A stretch of 64,000 nucleotides of DNA from a virus (IMGVR_UViG_3300042882_000899:1-64000); one strand, 5' to 3'. Shown: positions 41,413 through 52,805, counted from the stretch's first letter. The notes: generated from the letters alone by a model not told the origin. Numbers and translations are program-made.

Positions 41413-41509
41413 TGAGTTCCGCCTTTCGTTTTGATTATACCATTGACCACTGACATTTGTAAATGAAGGGGGACCCGCCTCAGCAGAGGCAGGTCCCCAC
41501 AGTTAGTTG

Positions 41510-41662
41510 TTACTTGACGTTCTTCTTGTCTGTGAAGACTACGCCTTCTTGTGCTGCCTTGCTGATAGCTCCTAGAGCTGCTGCTGAAAAGCGACCACGC
41601 TTGCCTACAGAAATGCCCTGGGTCTTTAGGTACTCACGAGTTGTTGTTGGTGTTGATGTCAT
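41510..41662 (-). CDS. Lsr2-like DNA-binding-domain-only protein (absent from ORF track)
   Basis: TREYLKTQGISVGKRGRFSAAAL; SD GAAAGGA; followed by a GC hairpin. Confidence 0.7.
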   Translation of the reverse strand: MTSTPTTTREYLKTQGISVGKRGRFSAAALGAISKAAQEGVVFTDKKNVK

Positions 41663-41812
41663 TTAGTTTGATCCTTTCTAGATCGAGTTGTTATATATAT
41701 TATATCCGAATTTCGGGGATTTGTAAATAGAGTCGTAAAGCAATATTTTTGCCCGTCTCCCTTAGATTGATGACCGTTATGTCCGAATTGTCCATAACGG
41801 TCCAACCTATCT

Positions 41813-43309
41813 TTATTTAGTTGTTACTTCTAGTTCTACTACATTGTATGGCTCAATCAGGTCATCAGTTGGAATCTCAGTCCAGCCCTCTGCAGGAATC
41901 CTAAGCGCTGACTCCCATGCAAGGTCGTGAGACTCTGCGTTAATGATTACATAAAACTCTTGCTTGCGGTCACCATAGATTTTATAGTCTTGTCTCATAG
42001 TCCCACCTGTTCTACCCTATCTTTAATTAGTTTAGCAATGATGTTATGGGCCTCGATGTTTTCAGTTTCGCTGCCACCCCATAGCAAAGCTTGGGCCTTG
42101 CTAAGTTGATCGTTTAAGTATTCATCACTCATCTTCATCTTCGTCTTCTTCCTCTTCCCACTCAGGGTCAGTAATGTAGTCACGATTCAACATCCACTCT
42201 AGGACATCGTCTTGGTGCTGTTCTGCACCGTATTCCAAGGAAAAGCCTTGTCCAGCCTCCACAGCCTCGCACAGGTGGTTCCACATGTCATCTTGGGTAA
42301 CCTTAGCATTGTAGTTCTCATCATCTAAGATGTTATTAATAGTTGACCATGTCCATAGCCAAACAAGCGATAGGCCAAGGTCGGTGCTGTCTAGAATCTC
42401 TAAACACTTGTTTAGTTTATCTTTATCTTCAGGCTTCATTCAATGGCTCCGAATCTATTCTCTCTTGAATTGCAAATGAGAGTTGATATGTTAGTTGATA
42501 CAGGTCAACTAGCATGTCGAGTCGTCCTTCACACTCTGTACGGACCATAGAGTCCATTGCCTCTTCGGACCTTTCTTCTTGTGCTAATGCCTCTGATAGG
42601 TCTTGCTCAGCAATTAGCATTAGATTCTTTAGTTCACCATGCAAGATATCAAGGCCTGATACTCCAGCATTAACCATGCGTTGCAAATGGGGCGGGAGCC
42701 CAATGTCTTCTGCAGTCATATTCATTAATATACCCTTTCGTTATCAAGCATTATATCAGTTGCCACTGACAAAATATGTTCCATAGTATCAATTGCTCCT
42801 GTGTAATATGCATCTGATTCAAAGTACTCATCTTCATTTAAAGGTATGTTATTTCTAGCATCCTCTAAATCTTGTTCTAAACTAATCTTATGTATCTTTA
42901 GATATTCCATAAAATGTGATGACCTAGTCAAAATAACCCTCCGCCCATAGTCCCTGGAGAAAACTAACTGTCATCTCCAAATCATTTCTAAGTTGTGTCT
43001 TGTCCATTAAATCGGACGGGGATCGAAGATAGAATAACTTAGCATCATGTACTGAGTTAATCATAGTATCTAAATCTTTTTTCTCATATCCTAACATCAT
43101 AAGCAGAACTCATCTCCTTCAATATATCCATAGTATTCATTGTATGATTGTTTTAAGTTATCAGGTGCAAATTGCATAAACTTAAATTCTGCATAATCTG
43201 TACCTTCATCTAAATTAGCATTGTTCCATTGCTCAAATAGATGTTGCTCAATATCTACTTGAATTGCTCCAAGAAGATGTTCTCCTACTGTATCTGTAAA
43301 TGCTTCCAT
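41813..43309 (-). other. run of seven coupled small hypothetical ORFs
   Basis: 41813-41998, 41995-42138, 42125-42439, 42429-42725, 42725-42931, 42924-43100, 43097-43309. Confidence 0.7.
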
Positions 43310-44043
43310 TATGCTTCCGCCTTTCTATATTCAGGAACTTTGGTTTCTAAGTATACACTATGGGTCTGACATTCTTTAACAGCCTCTAGGTCTGCCTCGC
43401 CAAGCCAGTTGCAAGCACCGCAGATTTCTCCACATTCATTCTCGCAGTATTCCATTTGATTAGTTGCATCACAATCACGGCACATGTTATCATATTCTGA
43501 TTCTGAGATAACTTCACCACGGAGGAATTCCATTTCCCCACCCCAACCTGTTTCTTCTTCATATGATAAAGTAAATAGTAGTGTTGGGTATTGTGCAGAT
43601 AGTTTAGAGATAGCACCAAGAGGCCGTGACCATGCAGTATTAAAGTTATAATGAACTACATAGTTCTCGCCATTCTCGGCTTCCTCGATAGTTGTATCAG
43701 GATACTTGTCATCTTCTGATACAGCAACATCCCACTTAGTACCCCACTCACGAACATTAAAGTTGTACCAGTCATTGGTCTCAAACTTCATTGCCTGAGA
43801 AAAGTCGGTGGAACGAGGAGGTTGTCCATGATATACCTCATCAGTAATACCAGCATCCTTATATGAATAGATATTATGAAAAGCAAAGATAGGATTAACA
43901 TACTTAGTCTGCTTGACATCATATGATAAATCACCTACAGGTGTAATAGAATAAACAAATGGCTTATTCATCTGCTTGATTAGATTTTTAACTTGCTCAG
44001 GATTACCTTCAATAGTTAATCCATTAAATACCCAGTTTGGCAT
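43309..44043 (-). CDS. DUF1281/YubB-ferredoxin-like protein
   Basis: MPNW, WY.FN..WGTKWD, FNTAWS.P. Confidence 0.75.
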   Translation of the reverse strand: MPNWVFNGLTIEGNPEQVKNLIKQMNKPFVYSITPVGDLSYDVKQTKYVNPIFAFHNIYSYKDAGITDEVYHGQPPRSTDFSQAMKFETNDWYNFNVREWGTKWDVAVSEDDKYPDTTIEEAENGENYVVHYNFNTAWSRPLGAISKLSAQYPTLLFTLSYEEETGWGGEMEFLRGEVISESEYDNMCRDCDATNQMEYCENECGEICGACNWLGEADLEAVKECQTHSVYLETKVPEYRKAEA

Positions 44044-44267
44044 TTTATATCCTTTCGTTGATATGTTCCTATTATATATTAGACCACTGACAAATGTCTA
44101 TATGATATGGGTCACAAACGATAATTTGACCCCTCCAAATTAGTGTTTACACTTCTATATGTAAATCAATATAGATGTGTAAGCTTTGTGGTCAAGATCA
44201 TAGCAAATTCCAGGGAATATAATTGACAGTCGTAACGACAATATGCTACCCTCATGTCTTTGCGGGC

Positions 44268-44297
44268 AAAGAAAAACCCCCCAGCTAGTGGGGGGTC
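44268..44297 (-). terminator. intrinsic terminator
   Basis: CCCCCC-ACTAGCT-GGGGGG followed by TTTTTCTTT. Confidence 0.75.
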
Positions 44298-44417
44298 TTG
44301 AATAATGGCTGCCTGGATTTCCAACGAAAGAAATAAACCCGCTTTACTTAGCGCCTGGCCATTGAGACTGATAGACGCACCATTATATTTCCTATTAAAA
44401 CCAGGACCTTAGTCCTA
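44268..44417 (-). ncRNA. candidate small RNA with an anti-leader loop
   Basis: TGGTATAAT at 44423-44431, 5' hairpin, loop AUUUCUUUCGUUGG, intrinsic terminator. Confidence 0.55.
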
Positions 44418-44423
44418 GTCTAA

Positions 44424-45356
44424 TTATACCATAACTAGTCGACTGTATTTGTCTACGAATGCCGCCAAGGATAGACTGAATACAACCGTGCTCATATCTT
44501 CCTCGTACAGTGTAAACGTTTGAGAGGCCCAGTTAATTACAGGCACCTTGTGTTCGTTGTCCCCTAGTTGATTTACGTAGAGCCCCCATGATAATGTTTG
44601 ATTCCAGTCTTCTCCAATTAAATGAGAGATTGCAATACGTGTTGCATATGATGGGTCCTGCCAACGTGTCTCTGCAGCGCTAACAGCATTTGCCAGTTTG
44701 GCTAGCATGTCGTGGCCTGCCCAGTGCCCGTATAAAAATATTGTATCGCCTTTTTGGTCTTTAAACCCAAAGTTTGCTCTGTCGCCCATATTATTCCGCC
44801 GTTTCTAAAGTAGGTACTGCTTCTTCTATTTTGTTTAATTCTATCACTTCGTATGCGACCTTGTCAAGGCCACGCTTGCTTGCATTGTAGTGGTGACCGC
44901 AAAAGAACAGTTCACCTTCTACTAGTTTAACTAAGTACATTGCTTGAGCTGTGTTACATTGATCACATGCTATCCATCTTGTTAGATCTTCCGTTGTCAT
45001 AGTTTTCCTCCTTCGATCATCTCAGATAGACGGTCAAGGATCCAGGAATCAATGTCGTTGATATCAATCTCTGACAACTTTTCCATGATCTCTTCACGAG
45101 CAAACTTATATCCATCTGCCCAGCCATCTTTATATTCTGACATAATCTCTCCTTAGTAACCTGTTGTTTCGTAGTCTGATATGTATGATTCAGTTAAGTT
45201 GTACTTATCACGCAGACGACTTACTTTCTCAATACTACCAGTTCCAATGTTGAATGTCAATGGAGCCATTCTCTGCGGGTCGAGTCCGTTGATTTCTGCA
45301 TCCCAATAGGCCCTCTCCATGGAGAGCCTATTAGGAGCGGTGAGTTCAAAATACAT
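44424..45356 (-). other. four small hypothetical ORFs
   Basis: 44424-44789 (LYGHWAG), 44791-45000 (CxxC..CGHH), 44997-45143, 45153-45356. Confidence 0.7.
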
Positions 45357-46012
45357 TATGCCTCCCTAACGTTGCAAACTTCGGTGTCATCAATTGTGAT
45401 GTTTCCGTCATTTGATTCAGCATATAATGAATCTGTTATAACTGACTCAAGGTCGTACTCTGAATAATCTGATAGAACATCATATGAATATGTTCCAGTA
45501 ACTTCTACAGATGCAGTAAACTGAACTTCCTTGATAAGTTCGATACCAAGCGCTTCAGCAATGTCACGCAATGTATCTTGGTCTTGTGAATCTGCATATG
45601 CCTCGCAGATGATTTCCTTGACTGCATCAATCTTAGATTGAATAGAACTTAAAGTCTTCTGCGATTGACGGGCATTGTGAAGGTCCCATTCAATACTGGT
45701 AACCTTATCTGTAATGTACTCAGGATTAGAATAACCGTTAATCTTTTTATATGTTACTAATAGATTAGAGTTATATGTATCTGGTACCAAGTGCTCTGTT
45801 GTTTCCATTTTTTCCTCTTTCGTTTGGGTTAAGGGTGTAATTGTAGCATGCTCCACTGACAATAATGTAGTCTTACGCCCGCATGGGCATGTGAGTTCTG
45901 TCACACCTGAAGGAAAGCCAAATCCATCAGATGATGTAAGTTCAATTAAACAATCGCAATGCTCAGGATCACATGCGAATGTGTATTTACTTGATATGAG
46001 TTCGTTGGTCAT
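45356..46012 (-). CDS. hypothetical protein with long (46012) and short (45808) in-frame starts
   Basis: Two nested promoters; Cys-rich N-terminal extension. Confidence 0.7.
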   Translation of the reverse strand: MTNELISSKYTFACDPEHCDCLIELTSSDGFGFPSGVTELTCPCGRKTTLLSVEHATITPLTQTKEEKMETTEHLVPDTYNSNLLVTYKKINGYSNPEYITDKVTSIEWDLHNARQSQKTLSSIQSKIDAVKEIICEAYADSQDQDTLRDIAEALGIELIKEVQFTASVEVTGTYSYDVLSDYSEYDLESVITDSLYAESNDGNITIDDTEVCNVREA

Positions 46013-46113
46013 GAAGAGAATTATACACCAGGCCACTGACATTTACAATAGATTCCAGGGAATATTTGTGTGAGTCGTAACACACTTTTTGCCCCCTTAG
46101 CTTTGAGGGCGCT

Positions 46114-46190
46114 TGGCGATCCATATCGGACTTGAACCGACGGCCTCTACCGTGACAGGGTAGCGCTCTAACCAACTGAGCTAATGGACC
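46114..46190 (-). tRNA. tRNA-Asp(GTC) with encoded CCA
   Basis: Canonical cloverleaf, CTACC-CTGTCAC-GGTAG. Confidence 0.92.
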
Positions 46191-46201
46191 AAGAAAAATT
46201 G

Positions 46202-46229
46202 TGAGCAGTTTTTAATCATGCTCAGGATT
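46202..46229 (-). ncRNA. 3'-UTR pseudoknot motif, copy 3
   Basis: AATC-CTGAGCAT-GATT-AAAAAC-TGCTCA. Confidence 0.55.
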
Positions 46230-46236
46230 TTATTTA

Positions 46237-47244
46237 TTAAAACGCAGAAACTAATTTTTTAATTTTATTTTTTTCTGCGGTTAGAATTGGGTCAAAGCCT
46301 GATGCACCAGCCATAAGTGTTTCAGAATTGCCACGACCTGAACGATAATAGTCAAGGCGTTCAGTAAGTGCATTGAAAGCACCCCACTTTGTACCCTTGA
46401 TGTTAGCGTTAGTTGGTGAGTTATGATAAAGGTCATCAAGCAAAACGACTTTATTCTCCCACTTAGTTAGCGCAACTTTAGCAGCATCCTTATCTGGCTT
46501 AGGATAAATTGTCTGAATCAACTTTGAGAATTCTGCATCAGTAATTGATTGAGAATAAAGTGCTTGCGCTTCCTTCTCAAATTCATCAAAGTATCCAAGA
46601 GCAAGACCAAGAGTCTCACGAGCAACTTGGATGCGACCTTCAACAGATTGCGTGTGGCGAATCTTAAATGATTGCTTTGCATTACGCATTGCAAGATTAA
46701 GAGTGTTTTGGCATACTACACGAACAGGGGTAACAGCAGCCTGAACAGCCACAGACCCGTCATGAGATGTCCATACGATTAGATACAACTTAGTTGCATC
46801 ATTTGCGCCTTGTGGGTCAAGCACCATTGTGCGAGGAATGTCCACAGTACCAAATACAACTTTACCGCTACGCAATGAGCCAGCAGACTCCCAGCGACAG
46901 TCAGCGTTTGCATCATGAATTGCATCAGCAAATGCAAATAGTTCCTCATTCTGCACAGGCTTGTAACGCTTGCCAACAGTGGCAAGAACATCAGTACCCT
47001 GATTGAATGGGTTATCACGAATAACTAACTGAGCATTTGATACATCATTCCATGTATCGGAGATGTGGTCAGTTAGTGGAGATAGACGAACATTCCAATT
47101 GGAAAGTTTTGCCTCATCCAACATCATTTGAGTTGTAACATCCTCATCTTGTGTAAAGATGCGATTTGCGAGATTGTGCCATGCAGGTGCGCCACGCAAT
47201 GCAAAAGCAACTTGACCATTTTCGGTTTCTAGATTATGAGCCAT
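46237..47244 (-). CDS. DUF932-family phage/plasmid protein
   Basis: MAHNLE...PAWH, Y.PVQNEE.F, SHDGS, TPVRVVCQNTL, RHT. Confidence 0.88.
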   Translation of the reverse strand: MAHNLETENGQVAFALRGAPAWHNLANRIFTQDEDVTTQMMLDEAKLSNWNVRLSPLTDHISDTWNDVSNAQLVIRDNPFNQGTDVLATVGKRYKPVQNEELFAFADAIHDANADCRWESAGSLRSGKVVFGTVDIPRTMVLDPQGANDATKLYLIVWTSHDGSVAVQAAVTPVRVVCQNTLNLAMRNAKQSFKIRHTQSVEGRIQVARETLGLALGYFDEFEKEAQALYSQSITDAEFSKLIQTIYPKPDKDAAKVALTKWENKVVLLDDLYHNSPTNANIKGTKWGAFNALTERLDYYRSGRGNSETLMAGASGFDPILTAEKNKIKKLVSAF

Positions 47245-47444
47245 TTATTTTTTACCTTTCGTTTGATTAGTTGTAAGTATAACAGAACCCACTGACAAAT
47301 ACTAGTCTAGTTACATTATGTCTCATTATGTGGGATGTGATCAATCTCACAAAATTCCAGGGATATCCACAGGCAGTCGTAACCCTGTGGATAACCCCTC
47401 AGATTTACGGGCCAGCTGCAGAGAATGCAGCCAGTGTTAGATCT

Positions 47445-47699
47445 TTAAAGACCTAACTCATCCCTAGTTAATTTATTTGTTCTCCCATAATTAATAACTT
47501 CGGACGGGAGGTAAAGAGCAGTAGTCTTAGTCTTCTTCAATGTATCATACACATAAGCACGTACATCACCAAAGAAGTTACGTCGATTAGAAAATGCTAA
47601 CTCAGTTAAGTATTCTTTATCTACGCCTTGCTCTGAATAAATTGTTAAATCATTTAACTTATTTGCGTCATAAATTTCTACACGAAATCTATTTTTCAT
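47445..47699 (-). CDS. hypothetical early protein
   Basis: SD plus ORF. Confidence 0.65.
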   Translation of the reverse strand: MKNRFRVEIYDANKLNDLTIYSEQGVDKEYLTELAFSNRRNFFGDVRAYVYDTLKKTKTTALYLPSEVINYGRTNKLTRDELGL

Positions 47700-47734
47700 T
47701 TTGTTACCTTTGTTAGTGGTTGTCCCCGAAGGGA

Positions 47735-47761
47735 GAGCAGTTTGGCGACATACTCAGGTCG
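47735..47761 (-). ncRNA. 3'-UTR pseudoknot motif, copy 4
   Basis: CGAC-CTGAGTAT-GTCG-CCAAAC-TGCTC followed by a UUCG hairpin. Confidence 0.55.
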
Positions 47762-47770
47762 TTGGATTGT

Positions 47771-48187
47771 TTAGAGATACTTAGCAATTTGCTTCATTGT
47801 AGAAGCATTTACTGTTTCCTCATCTGTCATCTTGAGAATTGTGAGAGCATTTGTGATGTCCTCTTTCATTTCCTTATACTGCCATTGTTGTATAGTCTCA
47901 AAGTCCTTCTCAGGCTCAGCAGGGAAATCGCTTTCGCCTGTTGTGATGTCAAAATCAACATTGAGAGTTTTGTTCCATTGACGATAGTTTGTGCGAAGGT
48001 TCTCAGCCTTTGAGAAGCGGTCAATAGCCCACTTTCCAATTTCCTTCTGCCACTTTTCATAAGCCTTCTTATACTTTGCTTCGTTGGCTTCTTGTGAGGC
48101 ATAGTTCTTTTCTATTTCTGCTAGACGAGTCTCTAGTGCCTTGATTACCTTTGGTGTTGCCACCTTTACTGTGATTGCTCTACTCAT
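47771..48187 (-). CDS. hypothetical early protein
   Basis: Own promoter and leader. Confidence 0.75.
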   Translation of the reverse strand: MSRAITVKVATPKVIKALETRLAEIEKNYASQEANEAKYKKAYEKWQKEIGKWAIDRFSKAENLRTNYRQWNKTLNVDFDITTGESDFPAEPEKDFETIQQWQYKEMKEDITNALTILKMTDEETVNASTMKQIAKYL

Positions 48188-48273
48188 TGTTATTACCTTT
48201 CGTTGGTTGTTTAGTTTGTTTGAGTATTATAGCAGGGGGGTCTGACATTTCTGCGACCCCCCATGCCGTTAGA

Positions 48274-49171
48274 TTATACGCCTAGTAGGGTTTGAGCAGA
48301 TACCGAAGTCCAACGAGTTTCCTTGTTGGGCATTTCTAGTAGCACACGCACCGAGCCAGATGTTTGTGGGTGGATTTCCTTAATCACACCTGTTTTCTTT
48401 GACTTGAGAGTGGTGAATAAATCGCCCACCTGATACAACTTGTCGTTGATTGTCATTTATTGCCTCTTTTCTTTGTTAGGTTGGTAATTATAGCATTGGG
48501 GTCTGACATTAGTCTAGCCCTATCTCACTATGTGAGAAAGTTATTGTGTGATAAAAATCACAAGTATTCGGTTAGATCGCCATCCATGATCTCATTTAGC
48601 TCTAAGCCTTCTGAGTCTGCGATTGCTTCCCATAGATCCATTTCATTAAAGTCTCCATCAGGATGTCTCTCTGATAAGATAGAATAAAGATTATTCATTA
48701 GTAATCCTCCTCTGGTAGCCAAGCGTCTAAGTGGTGTTGTTCAGCAATTGCCCAAGCGGGTGCTGTTGTTCTATCTTTGTATTTCACGCCTTCAGGAAGT
48801 GCTATTGGTGCATCGTATTCTCCCGCATGGATAGCATCAATGGCATCAATGCAGGGTTGCACCATAGAAAGTGGGACGGGTGGGTAATGATTACCCTGTA
48901 AGTGATAGCCTAGTGCTACCTCTAAATCTAATTCAGTTAAATCTAATGCTGTGTTGTATCCCATTTATTCTGCCACCTTTAGAATAGCCCATGAGCCACC
49001 CTTGTTAATTTCATCTAGTGCAGGCTTAAGTGTTGGTGCAATAAGTGTTTTTAGCATTCCTTCTAGCATAAGTATTTGGTCTGACTTATCAAGTGCAAGT
49101 AGCATAGCACCTGTTGGATTAGTTTCATCAACTTCAGTTATGAAGCGGAGAGCGTGTTCGATAGTTATCAT
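48274..49171 (-). other. small early ORFs 48274-48456, 48698-48964, 48965-49171
   Basis: Each behind a promoter or coupled; HLQGNHYPPVP motif in 48698-48964. Confidence 0.7.
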
Positions 49172-49454
49172 TTTTTGCCTTTCGTTGTTGGTATAAGAGT
49201 ATTATAGCGTAGGCCACTGACAAATTGTGCAACACTCCCAAGATTAATCTAATTTATTTTGTGATTAATCTCACAAATTTCAGGGGGTTGTGGATAACGC
49301 CCGTAAGCCTGTGGATAACCCCGCAGTATTGCGGGCTTCCCGCAGCTTTTATTGATCAAATTTATTTTTATGTTTTATTTTGCGTGTGTATTTTTTTTTA
49401 TTACGAACAGGTTGCGCCGCATTACTGCGGCGCAATTCCTGAATTCGTTTTACT

Positions 49455-49646
49455 TTATCTCGAAGTGAATTTTGGAACATTGTATCCACTCGCTTCGTGA
49501 AATCGTTTTACATCAAATCGCTCATTATCTTTAGCAAACATTTCAGCGAAATCATTTACCATTTTAGAAAAAACAGCGGGGTGAGTTTTATCGCTAGCAT
49601 ACTTTAGAATTTCTGCGGTTGCGACATAATCTTTGCGTGTCATCAT
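49455..49646 (-). CDS. hypothetical protein, paralogue of the C-half of 24493-25005
   Basis: MTRKDYVATAEIL...FAKDNERFDVKRF. Confidence 0.75.
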   Translation of the reverse strand: MMTRKDYVATAEILKYASDKTHPAVFSKMVNDFAEMFAKDNERFDVKRFHEASGYNVPKFTSR

Positions 49647-49849
49647 TTTACTACGACCCTTCTGCCTTCACGATAAAAAACTTTTGTGTGGCATTTGCCA
49701 GTTGGCGTGTAAAGATTTACAGTTGCGTATTCATCAGCAAATCCCCAATCGGTAAAGCGGAAAAAGTTTTCCCACGCACCAAATTCGTTTTCGTATTCTG
49801 CCGACCAATGCGGAGCATTTGAGTCATAGGCGCAAGTTAGTTTATACAT
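49643..49849 (-). CDS. hypothetical protein, paralogue of the N-half of 24493-25005
   Basis: MYKLTCAYD...TDWGFADEYATVNLYTP. Confidence 0.75.
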   Translation of the reverse strand: MYKLTCAYDSNAPHWSAEYENEFGAWENFFRFTDWGFADEYATVNLYTPTGKCHTKVFYREGRRVVVK

Positions 49850-52547
49850 TAGTTGTTCTCCAATTCTTTTACACAATCGCATTGTTCGCAATCATAGTCA
49901 TTATCATTACCAAAAAAGATTACTCCGTATCCGTGGCAATCTATACAATCTATTCTTATTAGTGAGTTTATCATTTAGTTTTCCTTTCGTTTTGTTATTG
50001 CTTATTATAGCCTAAGCCACTGACATTTATTCGGCTTCGGGGGTGGTGAATAAGGCTCCCTCGTTGAGTAGCCCTACCTCAATGTTAAACAGTTCATCAG
50101 GGGTGGCTTCGGATAAATCTACCCAGCCCGCACCATTTTGATCAATTCTAAAAATCTCAATGTATCCCATTAGTGTTGTTCCTCGCAATCTTTGTCATAG
50201 TCAAATCCGCAAAAGTAGCAACCCATAAACTCTAGGTGCTCTATACAGTAATACTTAAATTGACTTTCATCACAGCAAAAATGTTGCTCGTCTGCGATTT
50301 CATAGAAATCGGTTTTGTCGATTATGTTTAGCATTAGTTTTCCTTTCGTTTGCTTATTTAGTTATTGTACCGCAAGGGTCTGACAAATTAGTCAGACACC
50401 TTGACGGCTAAATAGCGGTATGTATCTTTTAGATTTAGCGGGGCTGAATAATGAGGTCGAACCTGAACCTTGTATGTATCACAATTCGCATACCATACAT
50501 CATCATTTTTTTCCGCTGAGATAATTTCACCCTTTAGAGTTTTTGAGTGATAAGTTTTTCCTACAAGTAGGCTTTCGATAGAATAGACATTTGCTGACAT
50601 TTGAGTCCGCCTTTCGTTTGTTGATAGTAGCAATTATAGCCTATCCCACTGACATTTTCTAATTACTAGCGAGTAATTCCAAATAATGAGACGCTCAAGT
50701 CATGTGATAAAAATCACAAAATCTCGGGCGTGTCGCAAATTCCAGGGGTTGTGGATAACTCCCGTAACCCTGTGGATAACCCCGCTCTTTTGCGGGCGCA
50801 TCAACTTTTGTCAAGTCGACACGCCGTTACTTATTTAAAATCTTTAAAAATTTCCTCAAGCTTTAAGATTTGCTCATCTGTTAAATGATCAATTTCAATT
50901 GCTTTTTCAAATCCAAAAAAATCTGTCATTCGCTCATCAACCTTTCTAAATCGTCTGCGTTATCTTTCATGTAATTATCTTGAAAATCTAGTAACGCCTC
51001 ATTGTAAGCAATTGGGTCACAATCTTTTAAGATTTGGGAGGGATAGAAAACAGCGTTACCCATTTCATAGACGGGATAACAATCATCAAGCATTTCATCA
51101 AATAATTGTTTAATCGCAAAAGTAATTTCGAAATCTAGCATTAGTTAGTTTCCTTATCTTTTAGAATGTTAAGAATAATTTGTAATTGTTCAACAGAAAG
51201 AAGTGCTTGAGCACAACCCCATGTAAATGCTAAATCCATTTCTTGATAATGTTTTTTAGCAAGTGTATTTATTTCTTGCGTTAATTCGAAATTAGTTTTC
51301 ATTTAGATACATACCAATCTGTCCACATAGGAAGTTGCTCAGGGTCACTATCATAGTAGTAACGCTCAATGTTTTGTTCACAATCCATACAGAAAGTGTA
51401 TTGCTCATCTCCGATTTCTGAGATAGCGGATTTCATAGGGTTATGTTCTTTACATAGCGTGTTTAGTGTAGTCATTTGAGACCACCTTTCTTTTTGTTTG
51501 TATGTCGCTATTGTAGCAGGGGGGTCTGACATTTTGACCTGTTTCTCGGGCGTGTCGCAAAACTATTTTTGTGATAAAAATCACATAAATCCTGGGGTTT
51601 TCCACAGATGCCCGTAAGCCTGTGGATAACTCCCGCAAGTACTTGCGGGCCAGCTTGATAATGTCAAGCCGACACGCCGTTAGGCTAGTGTGACTCTTGC
51701 CACAATTCACGCATCTCTGCCATGAAGTCATGGTAGGCGATCCTCGCCATGTATAGGGCGGGAATAGCAATGGCTAATTGTACTAGTGTAGTAAGTAGTC
51801 TATTCATAGTGTAGCAACCGCCTTTATGTCCATTACATTAGCAGTAAACTTTTTACTCTTTCCTAATTCGCTCTCATTAAGAGCATTGATTAGATTATCA
51901 ATAGCCTTTACATCATGAGCAACATTATCGATTGAGATTAGTTTAGAGCCTTGCCAAATTGAGTAAGTGATAGTCATTATTAGTTCTCCCATGTTAGTGC
52001 GTATAGTTTTGCTAGTGCTTCATCATCTTCATCATCAAAGTCATCAAAGTCAAGCGCTGGCGCTTCATCTAGTTCATCATCAAGGTGACGATAGGCGTCT
52101 GATACATCTGATTGGATAGTGTCCCACTTAGAGACGGAATTATTTTCGTATGAGTATGCGTATGACATTATTTATTCATCTCCTTAGCGATAGCCTCTGA
52201 CTTAGTTAGTGCCTCTAGGGCGATTGCTAGGGAGGCAAGGCGTTGCGCCTCTACCATTTGCTTGTATTCATCTAGGTTCATTTATGACCTTCTTTCGTTG
52301 TTGTTATTCTGTAATTGTAGCGTATGGGTCTGACAAATTGGGGAGGTTGGCTAGTGTGTCGGTGTGATACTAGTCACACTCTCCACATGGGCATTGAGGA
52401 AACTCTCGCTCTTGCTTTATGCGGTTAGCGAGTCGCTCTACCTTTAGGTATGTATCAGCGGAGGCACCTCGGAAAGATACTACCTTTCCTTCAGCGATAA
52501 GGTGAGCAGCCTTAGCAATCTTTTGCTCTAGTGTTAGTGAAGTCATT
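49849..52547 (-). other. about a dozen further 35-75 aa early ORFs
   Basis: e.g. 50388-50600, 50926-51141, 51299-51475, 51804-51977, 51980-52168; coupled TAATG junctions and SDs. Confidence 0.65.
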
Positions 52548-52805
52548 ATTTAACTTCCTTTCTTTTTGTTATACCTTAAGCATAGCATGGGGGACTGACA
52601 AATTGACGCAAATCTCGGGCGTGTCGCAAAAAAACCTTTGTGATTAGCATCACACTCACGCTCAAGGCTCAAATAATTATGGGCGCACTATCCAAAATGT
52701 CCGTTTTGTCTAGGATGTGTATCATACATGTAAAAAATATATTAACATTTTTAGAAATCCTAAAAAGCAGTCGACTGGAATATAATGCGGTGGTACAATA
52801 GAAAC

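Follow-up and report, generated by a model that had tools for sequence, protein, structure and literature searches.

A predicted structured small-RNA gene whose loop is complementary to a ribosome-binding leader shared by phage genes

Here, we describe a short element on the minus strand of an uncultured phage, at ~44416 to 44270 of the window—the whole 64,000-nucleotide stretch that was analysed, corresponding to bases 1-64000 of a 114,960-bp IMG/VR phage record (IMGVR_UViG_3300042882_000899) whose completeness is estimated at 96%. The best reading of this element, judging from its sequence, is a stand-alone small RNA (sRNA) gene of ~147 nt, the transcription of which we infer. The gene is present in a single copy in the genome, preceded by an operon of 69-aa and 121-aa genes and directly followed by a 244-aa gene. 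Its folded core carries a loop that is complementary to the Shine-Dalgarno (SD) site in the leaders of a set of the phage's own genes, which raises the possibility that it controls them.

The locus and its transcription signals

Read 5' to 3' on the minus strand, the locus begins with an extended -10 promoter-like element, TGGTATAAT (44423-44431), in which the TAA stop codon of the upstream 121-aa open reading frame (ORF) falls within the TATAAT hexamer. This is followed by a 5' hairpin, AGGAC-UAAG-GUCCU (44403-44416), which folds at or near the presumed 5' end of the RNA, by the structured core described in the next section, and by an intrinsic terminator (44268-44297), in which a CCCCCC-N7-GGGGGG stem precedes the U-run UUUUUCUUU, stem and U-run together occupying 44268-44295. 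These elements, together with a GGGUUU/AAAUCC stem-loop and an 11-codon ORF, lie on this strand where an original prediction made from the sequence had placed them. The -10 element is conserved in every arrangement found among relatives. In most of them TG(G/C)TATAAT stands ~43-52 nt 5' of the first helix of the core (P1) with the 5' hairpin in between, and this holds for three upstream settings that differ from one another; in the other clades a TATAAT-like hexamer lies 8-12 nt 5' of P1, and the 5' hairpin is absent where the -10 element abuts P1 in this way. Where it is present, the hairpin varies in its stem with pairing maintained (GGAC/GUCC, GGUC/GACC, GGC/GCC). The terminator is likewise variable in stem sequence among relatives, which mostly retain both the stem and the U-run; L059 and L078 lack it.

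About 12 other promoter-like sites in the genome belong to the same extended -10 class as the sRNA promoter, which is therefore not of the PafBC type found at the target genes; the original prediction had also assigned it to a different class. Because no terminator separates the upstream operon from the sRNA, the latter may be produced either from its own extended -10 promoter or as the 3' end of that operon. A palindrome beside the sRNA promoter, AGTCGACT, was considered as a conserved operator and rejected, since relatives read AGTCAACT or AGTCAACC and the region codes for the C terminus of the upstream protein. No tRNA or tmRNA was found at the sRNA locus. No Rfam family reached its gathering score in the window, and a search of 44000-44600 with E-values of up to 10 gave best E-values of at least 0.24 with scores far under the cut-offs, which includes the model for c4 antisense RNA.

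A three-way-junction core among relatives

We are highly confident that the element is a genuine and novel structured sRNA gene. Relatives were collected by using the downstream 244-aa gene as an anchor, which yielded 80 related loci at 63-98% protein identity, and by a DNA pattern, which yielded ~120 more; most related loci are 72-100% identical across the interval bounded by the -10 element and the terminator. The core of the sRNA, found in >100 related IMG/VR contigs of uncultured freshwater phages, is a three-way junction formed by P1, P2/P3, and P4. A covariance model built from 20 sequences produced 75 matches, 74 of which are distinct. In the alignment of these 74 sequences, 92.3% of the cells in the proposed helices are paired (32-47% in slid controls), the covariation score is 0.349 (at most 0.086 in slid controls), and 12 of the 21 pairs have changed on both sides. 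A MAFFT alignment, which is not fitted to structure, gives 91.2% paired cells and a covariation score of 0.372; taking both alignments together, slid controls remain at 32-49% paired with a score of at most 0.11. RNAalifold recovered P2 unaided. Since ~15% of the paired cells are G-U and one U-G pair in P1 is invariant, the minus strand is the strand that folds, and both the terminator and the -10 element are oriented in the same way.

The helices can be described one by one. P1 pairs the 5' arm UAAUGGU (44379-44385) with the 3' arm GCCAUUA (44303-44309); four of its seven pairs change on both sides, and all 74 sequences share its U-G pair. The outer stem had originally been drawn as AATGGC/GCCATT, and here covariation calls for a correction, because it is to UAAUGGU (44385-44379) that GCCAUUA (44309-44303) pairs, and relatives devoid of the AATGGC word have kept both P1 arms. 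P2 pairs GCGUCU (44373-44378) with AGGCGC (44351-44356), its support from covariation being 100% of cells paired and 10 distinct arm pairs, with GC, CG, AU, and UA all found at one position. P3 (44358-44368) is a GUC-UCAAU-GGC hairpin, and all 42 distinct segments from relatives fold as a hairpin too, with stems including GUC/GGC, GCG/CGC, GGG/CCC, GGC/GCC, and GCU/AGC. The junction strand, UAAGUAAA (44343-44350), is nearly invariant (UAA[AG]UAAN) among relatives and is also found in Streptomyces phage homologs. Finally, P4 (44311-44342) consists of a GC/GC base with a bulged AG (a GC/GC base with a bulged A in the alignment of relatives), a stem in which GGGUUU (44340-44335) pairs with AAAUCC (44320-44315) with one G-U pair, and a 14-nt loop around which this stem closes, AUUUCUUUCGUUGG. 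There are 22 distinct P4 arm pairs, and six of its eight pairs change on both sides. The core hence proves to be a three-way junction whose P2 and P3 had been missed in the original prediction. Together, these helices define a new covariation-supported RNA family that is absent from Rfam.

Loop seed and shared leaders

The P4 loop carries the seed CUUUCGUUGG (44321-44330), the complement of CCAACGAAAG, which is unchanged in all but one of 53 distinct cores from clade 1 despite the 22 different P4 arm pairs, and which has no other minus-strand copy within the gene block at ~40-53 kb. This seed complements (CC)AACGAAAG on the SD site of 11 leaders. Viewed on the plus strand, the leader word CTTTCGTT occurs 14 times in the window when 1.56 copies are expected, a number reached in none of 100 shuffles, and 11 of these plus-strand copies correspond to a minus-strand AACGAAAG placed 7-11 nt before an ATG. 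The earlier claim that the seed is the exact complement of a word in 11 leaders, which overlaps their SD site, holds. These candidate target leaders, all on the minus strand, lie at 41423-41430 (with AACGAAAG 10 nt before the ATG), 42735-42742, 44052-44059 (leader of the 244-aa gene directly downstream of the sRNA), 45817-45824, 47256-47263 (leader of a 335-aa gene, originally given as 47257), 48197-48204 (which shows the full CCAACGAAAGG match and the best duplex, at -16.2 kcal/mol), 49179-49186, 49984-49991, 50343-50350, 50611-50618, and 52292-52299. In the leader motif GAAAGG is the SD part; the added AAC (often CCAAC) goes beyond anything the ribosome would require. The leaders of relatives read AACGAAAGG, very often CCAACGAAAGG, which gives a match of 10-11 nt to the loop.

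All 11 leader copies of AACGAAAG are found 12-25 nt after a TGTCAG-N10-TAYAAT promoter. There are ~20 such promoters on the minus strand at 41.4-52.6 kb (41434-52600), of the form TGTCAG(TGG/ACC)-N-TAYAAT with a spacing of exactly 10 nt; 11 of them carry the AACGAAAG leader, and the rest have AAAGAAAGG-type leaders. By their sequence the target-gene promoters fit the bipartite PafBC (RecA-NDp) motif without a -35 element, the consensus of which in mycobacteria is tGTCgg(N10)tA(N3)T (PMC8635444). Calling the target genes "early," and placing the action of the sRNA at an early-to-middle switch, is conjecture.

Some observations concern the promoters and their surroundings. In some close relatives (L035, L038, L045, L048-L050, L052, and L060) the same 244-aa gene is driven from TTGACA-N17-TAGAAT. 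The promoter at 46041 (-) is followed by an ATG (46013) only 7 nt past its -10 element, an arrangement suggestive of a leaderless mRNA encoding ~219 aa; inside this ORF there is a second PafBC-type promoter (45861) with a AACGAAAG leader (45817), which would give a shorter in-frame product starting from 45806. After the sRNA terminator, a block at 44180-44262 (-) reads GCCCGCAAAGA...GAGGG...TTACGAC...TTCCCTGGAAT...TTGACCAC and is kept even where the RNA is deleted. A similar block is found at 46053-46110. The block after the terminator resembles the sequence 5' of other PafBC-type promoters, so it looks like a repeated promoter-upstream module and not a part of the RNA. Next to it, ~85 nt (44097-44181) with the inverted repeats TTTACA-N8-TGTAAA and GGGTCA-N-TGACCC are shared by the window and its two closest relatives; in most relatives a different sequence, of ~37 nt, separates the upstream module from the 244-aa gene promoter.

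As for the phage itself, megablast and blastn searches of GenBank phages with the locus gave no matches, i.e., no near relative at the DNA level. At the protein level, the DnaE-like polymerase in the window shares 56% identity with its counterparts in 127-133-kb Streptomyces phages (Stanwilliamsviridae), and the 335-aa protein matches mostly actinophages. These matches, together with a G+C content of ~37% in the window, suggest a low-G+C freshwater actinobacterium as the host, to which the PafBC-type promoters of the target genes point as well. This is therefore most likely an uncultured freshwater phage related to large Streptomyces phages, with an actinobacterial host. A tRNA-Asp gene lies inside the block of small genes (46114-46190, minus strand, like the genes of the block), and five further tRNA genes are dispersed on the plus strand. 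Fifteen sequencing runs, 11 of them recorded as RNA, contain small shares of the words of the stretch.

Comparison of lineages links the seed to the leaders. Loci that have the RNA contain 5.7 AACGAAAG leaders per 10 kb, versus 1.4 in loci that do not. Likewise, among gene starts with a RAAAG-type SD, CGAAAG accounts for 62% in clade 1 and for 40% in clade 2, the other clade with the RNA (collected with the L081 protein), versus 7-22% in lineages without the RNA, three of which retain TGTCAG promoters together with the low CGAAAG share. A covariance-model search of five whole records without the RNA at this locus found no seed-bearing RNA elsewhere. In clade 2 the loop reads UUCCUUUCGUUUG and the leaders read CGAAAGGAA, having kept the GGA that follows CGAAAG (G in 97%, A in 79%) and lost AAC. 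Loop and leaders would thus have shifted in the same direction, a shift of register that is suggestive, not decisive.

We consider it somewhat more probable than not that this is a trans-acting sRNA, whose P4 loop would pair with the shared leaders and lower their translation. According to this sequence-based model, P4 of the three-way junction would display its 14-nt loop with CUUUCGUUGG, the loop would pair with 8-10 nt of (CC)AACGAAAG(G), found in the short leaders that head ~11 phage transcription units, and the GAAAGG SD 7-11 nt before the start codon would thereby be covered. The AAC extension would provide the sRNA with a longer duplex than the 3' tail of 16S rRNA can form, so the sRNA should compete with 30S subunits and lower translation of the gene set, possibly followed by mRNA decay. 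Calculated energies make this pairing feasible: seed-leader duplexes range from -10 to -16 kcal/mol, opening the target costs 0-3 kcal/mol, and opening the seed costs 1.1 kcal/mol when the covarying helices are enforced or 3.4 kcal/mol in the unconstrained ensemble.

Alternative readings and known systems

A number of observations weigh against regulation by pairing, or at least against pairing being the whole function of the RNA. First, the unconstrained fold buries the seed, whose probability of being unpaired is only 0.004 (0.16 when the covarying helices are enforced), and the minimum free energy (MFE) of -46.8 kcal/mol beats the -37.1 kcal/mol of the covariation-supported fold. The z-score of the single-sequence fold is only -2.25, and its MFE structure differs from the covariation-supported one. 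The original notion that the stem exposes the loop is consequently not what thermodynamic folding alone gives; in the covariation-supported fold the seed is a loop, with a mean unpaired probability of 0.54 over 72 variants. In the unconstrained MFE structure, the linker AGGAAAUA (44386-44402) pairs with UAUUUCUU (44327-44334) at the 5' side of the P4 loop, a possible alternative conformer that would mask the seed. Equivalents of both segments are retained in the clade with the 5' hairpin and are absent in the other clades.

Second, a genome-wide RNAduplex scan ranks the leaders high without separating them from chance sites, the loop being U-rich and finding a similar duplex energy at many unrelated sites (the 0.1% quantile is -15 kcal/mol). 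The case for pairing therefore rests on a complementarity that is exact, repeated, and conserved, not on energy. A comparison of own with swapped loops is a weak test that goes in the right direction, by -0.4 kcal/mol in clade 1, which is not significant, and by -1.06 kcal/mol in clade 2 (p = 0.004, for leaders that are not independent). Shared ancestry confounds the co-occurrence of RNA and leaders across few lineages, and in one contig (L004, 5700-6000 compared with L005) the RNA has been removed by a precise deletion, from inside the P1 5' arm to just beyond the terminator, leaving the flanks and the AACGAAAG leaders intact. For the co-variation of loop and leader, which had been put forward as a check on the prediction, the co-occurrence and the shift in clade 2 come closest to a test; they are suggestive, but the lineages are few and the energy comparison is weak.

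Third, the scaffold exists without this seed. In a distant relative, L073:8249-8328 (identical to L201:1501-1580), P1-P3 persist along with the junction and P4 is replaced by a seedless GCGC-UUAG-GCGC; with a strong terminator and a promoter of its own (TTGACA-N18-TAAAAT), this variant sits 1.5 kb downstream, not upstream, of a homolog of the 244-aa gene. A homologous scaffold with the P4 loop AWGGUCGG is found, mostly unannotated, in 83 records of cultured Streptomyces phages, as exemplified by Riptide (PV654398.1, 823-900 on the minus strand and 122275-122352; L285 and L287, with further loci L289-L298); it lies in the terminal repeat, downstream of a phrog_1221 gene. BillNye (NC_042105.1, 115861-115938; L286) has a weak homolog in a 5' untranslated region (UTR). 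The Streptomyces phage homologs share P2, the P3 flank, and the junction words CCCCUAUCAGUC and AGGGGUUAAAUA, they show covariation in P1 and P4, with 97.9% of cells paired and both partners altered in 10 pairs, and they have no match in Rfam. The complement of their loop (CCGACCWT) is not enriched in Riptide, with 12 matches versus 12 for the control, and none is found in Riptide early leaders. The scaffold is thus older and more widespread than the anti-leader seed, which is a lineage-specific P4 module, and it probably has a role of its own, e.g., in stability or with a protein partner. It follows that pairing is possibly neither the sole nor the original function.

This leads to the strongest rival, which we hold to be a good deal less probable than pairing in trans although well worth considering, namely that the RNA is centred on a protein, for which it would serve as scaffold, decoy, or sponge. 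A protein of the host or of the phage would then dock on the conserved three-way junction and its invariant unpaired nucleotides, CUAUCAGUC and UAAAUAAAGC, with the P4 loop as a recognition element particular to the lineage and with leader complementarity being incidental or secondary. Such a role would account for the seedless scaffold of the cultured Streptomyces phages, of L073, and, weakly, of BillNye, as well as for the fact that the AWGGUCGG loop has no enriched complement in its own genome. The invariance of the junction and of the nucleotides flanking P3 across soil and freshwater phages also suggests a tertiary or protein contact, and part of the seed could close the loop as C(UUUCGUU)G. 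However, this reading leaves unexplained why an AAC/CG extension of the leader beyond the SD is invariant only where a seed-bearing RNA exists, and why loop and leader have shifted in parallel in clade 2. Moreover, the chance that a 14-nt loop would contain an exact complement of 8-10 nt to the most over-represented leader word of the genome is ~1e-4. No partner protein was identified; the neighbouring genes have no informative family in PHROGs, Pfam, or the ESM Atlas, and the 121-aa protein shows no homology to Riptide gene 1.

The other readings fare worse. It is improbable that the RNA is merely a cis-acting stabiliser or terminator in the 3' UTR of the upstream operon (69-aa and 121-aa genes) with no function in trans. 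With the upstream stop codon falling within the TATAAT and no terminator ahead of the RNA, transcripts that read through must include it, and a gene of the 121-aa family comes before the RNA in most freshwater clades. Yet the -10 element is conserved even under differing upstream sequence, the L073 and Riptide versions have TTGACA-type promoters of their own and different neighbours, and a stabiliser needs neither an invariant 10-nt loop nor a junction with invariant bases. Still less probable is a riboswitch-like attenuator controlling read-through into the 244-aa gene, an idea encouraged by the position of the three-way junction directly before an intrinsic terminator and by the 5' UTR location of the BillNye homolog. 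That gene has its own PafBC-type promoter ~175 nt past the terminator and is missing downstream of the L073 and Riptide copies; in addition, we saw no anti-terminator alternative that is conserved, the terminator changes freely in sequence compared with P1, and no Rfam riboswitch matches. The 11-codon ORF (MVRLSVSMARR) can hardly be a micropeptide gene, for although its ATG at 44383 has AGGAAA 6-9 nt upstream, neither start codon nor frame is conserved among relatives—whole clades lack the ATG and read AAGGGTGC or AAAGGTGC, indels in the P3 loop shift the frame, and substitutions track base-pairing, not codons. That leaves a conserved, structured, and strand-specific gene with promoter-like and terminator elements, in line with the original view of a non-coding RNA. 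A replication origin primed by RNA, of the sort described for cluster A mycobacteriophages (PMC7157519), was rejected because that system differs in size and in context (parABS-adjacent) and has no strong terminator, and nothing at our locus speaks for it.

Returning to the trans-acting sRNA, one could go further and view it as a widespread, hitherto undescribed actinophage "chassis," in which a three-way-junction scaffold, probably docking a protein, presents a swappable P4 guide loop. The guide of the freshwater phages would be an extended mimic of the anti-SD tail of 16S rRNA and, by out-competing ribosomes, silence the PafBC-promoter gene set via a co-evolved leader word. This combined picture is tentative, and we would not bet on it as a whole. 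Were regulation by pairing true, this would be an RNA-based off-switch for a regulon, in which one phage sRNA addresses a whole promoter class via a shared leader, and a case of a regulator evolving in concert with about a dozen targets. The PafBC-type promoters suggest that a large gene block is tied to a host DNA-damage activator, to which a post-transcriptional brake would be a natural counterpart. The presence of the scaffold in 83 cultured Streptomyces phage genomes offers a laboratory route to its function.

How does this compare with known systems? Developmental switches in phages rely mainly on proteins (RegA, RegB, and MotA/AsiA in T4) or on antisense RNAs with a single target (c4, sar, OOP). 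The T4 RegA repressor and RegB endoribonuclease, functional analogues of the proposed sRNA, end translation by acting at the ribosome-binding sites of many early mRNAs; unlike these proteins, the effector proposed here is an RNA, with its specificity in the leader word of one promoter class. The unannotated element of the Stanwilliamsviridae (Riptide 823-900, Samistivirus, Karimacvirus) has a homologous scaffold, lies downstream of a phrog_1221 gene as in our phage, and has its own promoter; it differs by its 4-bp P4 stem and AWGGUCGG loop with no leader complementarity and by the lack of a clear terminator.

Among Gram-positive sRNAs, RsaE/RoxS, RNAIII, and the actinobacterial 6C RNA need no Hfq to pair the pyrimidine-rich seeds in their loops with the purine-rich SD of many mRNAs. 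C-rich (CCC/UCCC) and aimed at host regulons, these seeds differ from the one described here, CUUUCGUU(GG), which reaches past the SD into the leader-specific AAC(CC) and whose candidate targets are the phage's own genes. Our window has no match among Rfam families. The c4 antisense RNA of P1/P7 blocks translation of a phage mRNA by pairing in trans, through its loops, with the region where the ribosome binds, and it can work only if the complementary bases are presented in those loops (PMC12197685). The RNA described here is similarly a phage-encoded, structured small RNA, for which pairing through the bases of a loop is predicted from sequence, although it is not related to c4 in sequence or structure, as the Rfam c4 model does not match. 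Whereas c4 serves immunity in a temperate enterobacterial phage, where it controls one operon (icd-ant) and is itself processed out of that transcript, the single seed of our large actinophage matches ~11 transcription units that are separate from one another. Weighing these likenesses and differences, we think, by a modest margin of belief, that the sRNA works like c4 and like the SD-targeting sRNAs of Gram-positive bacteria, yet is a member of no known family.

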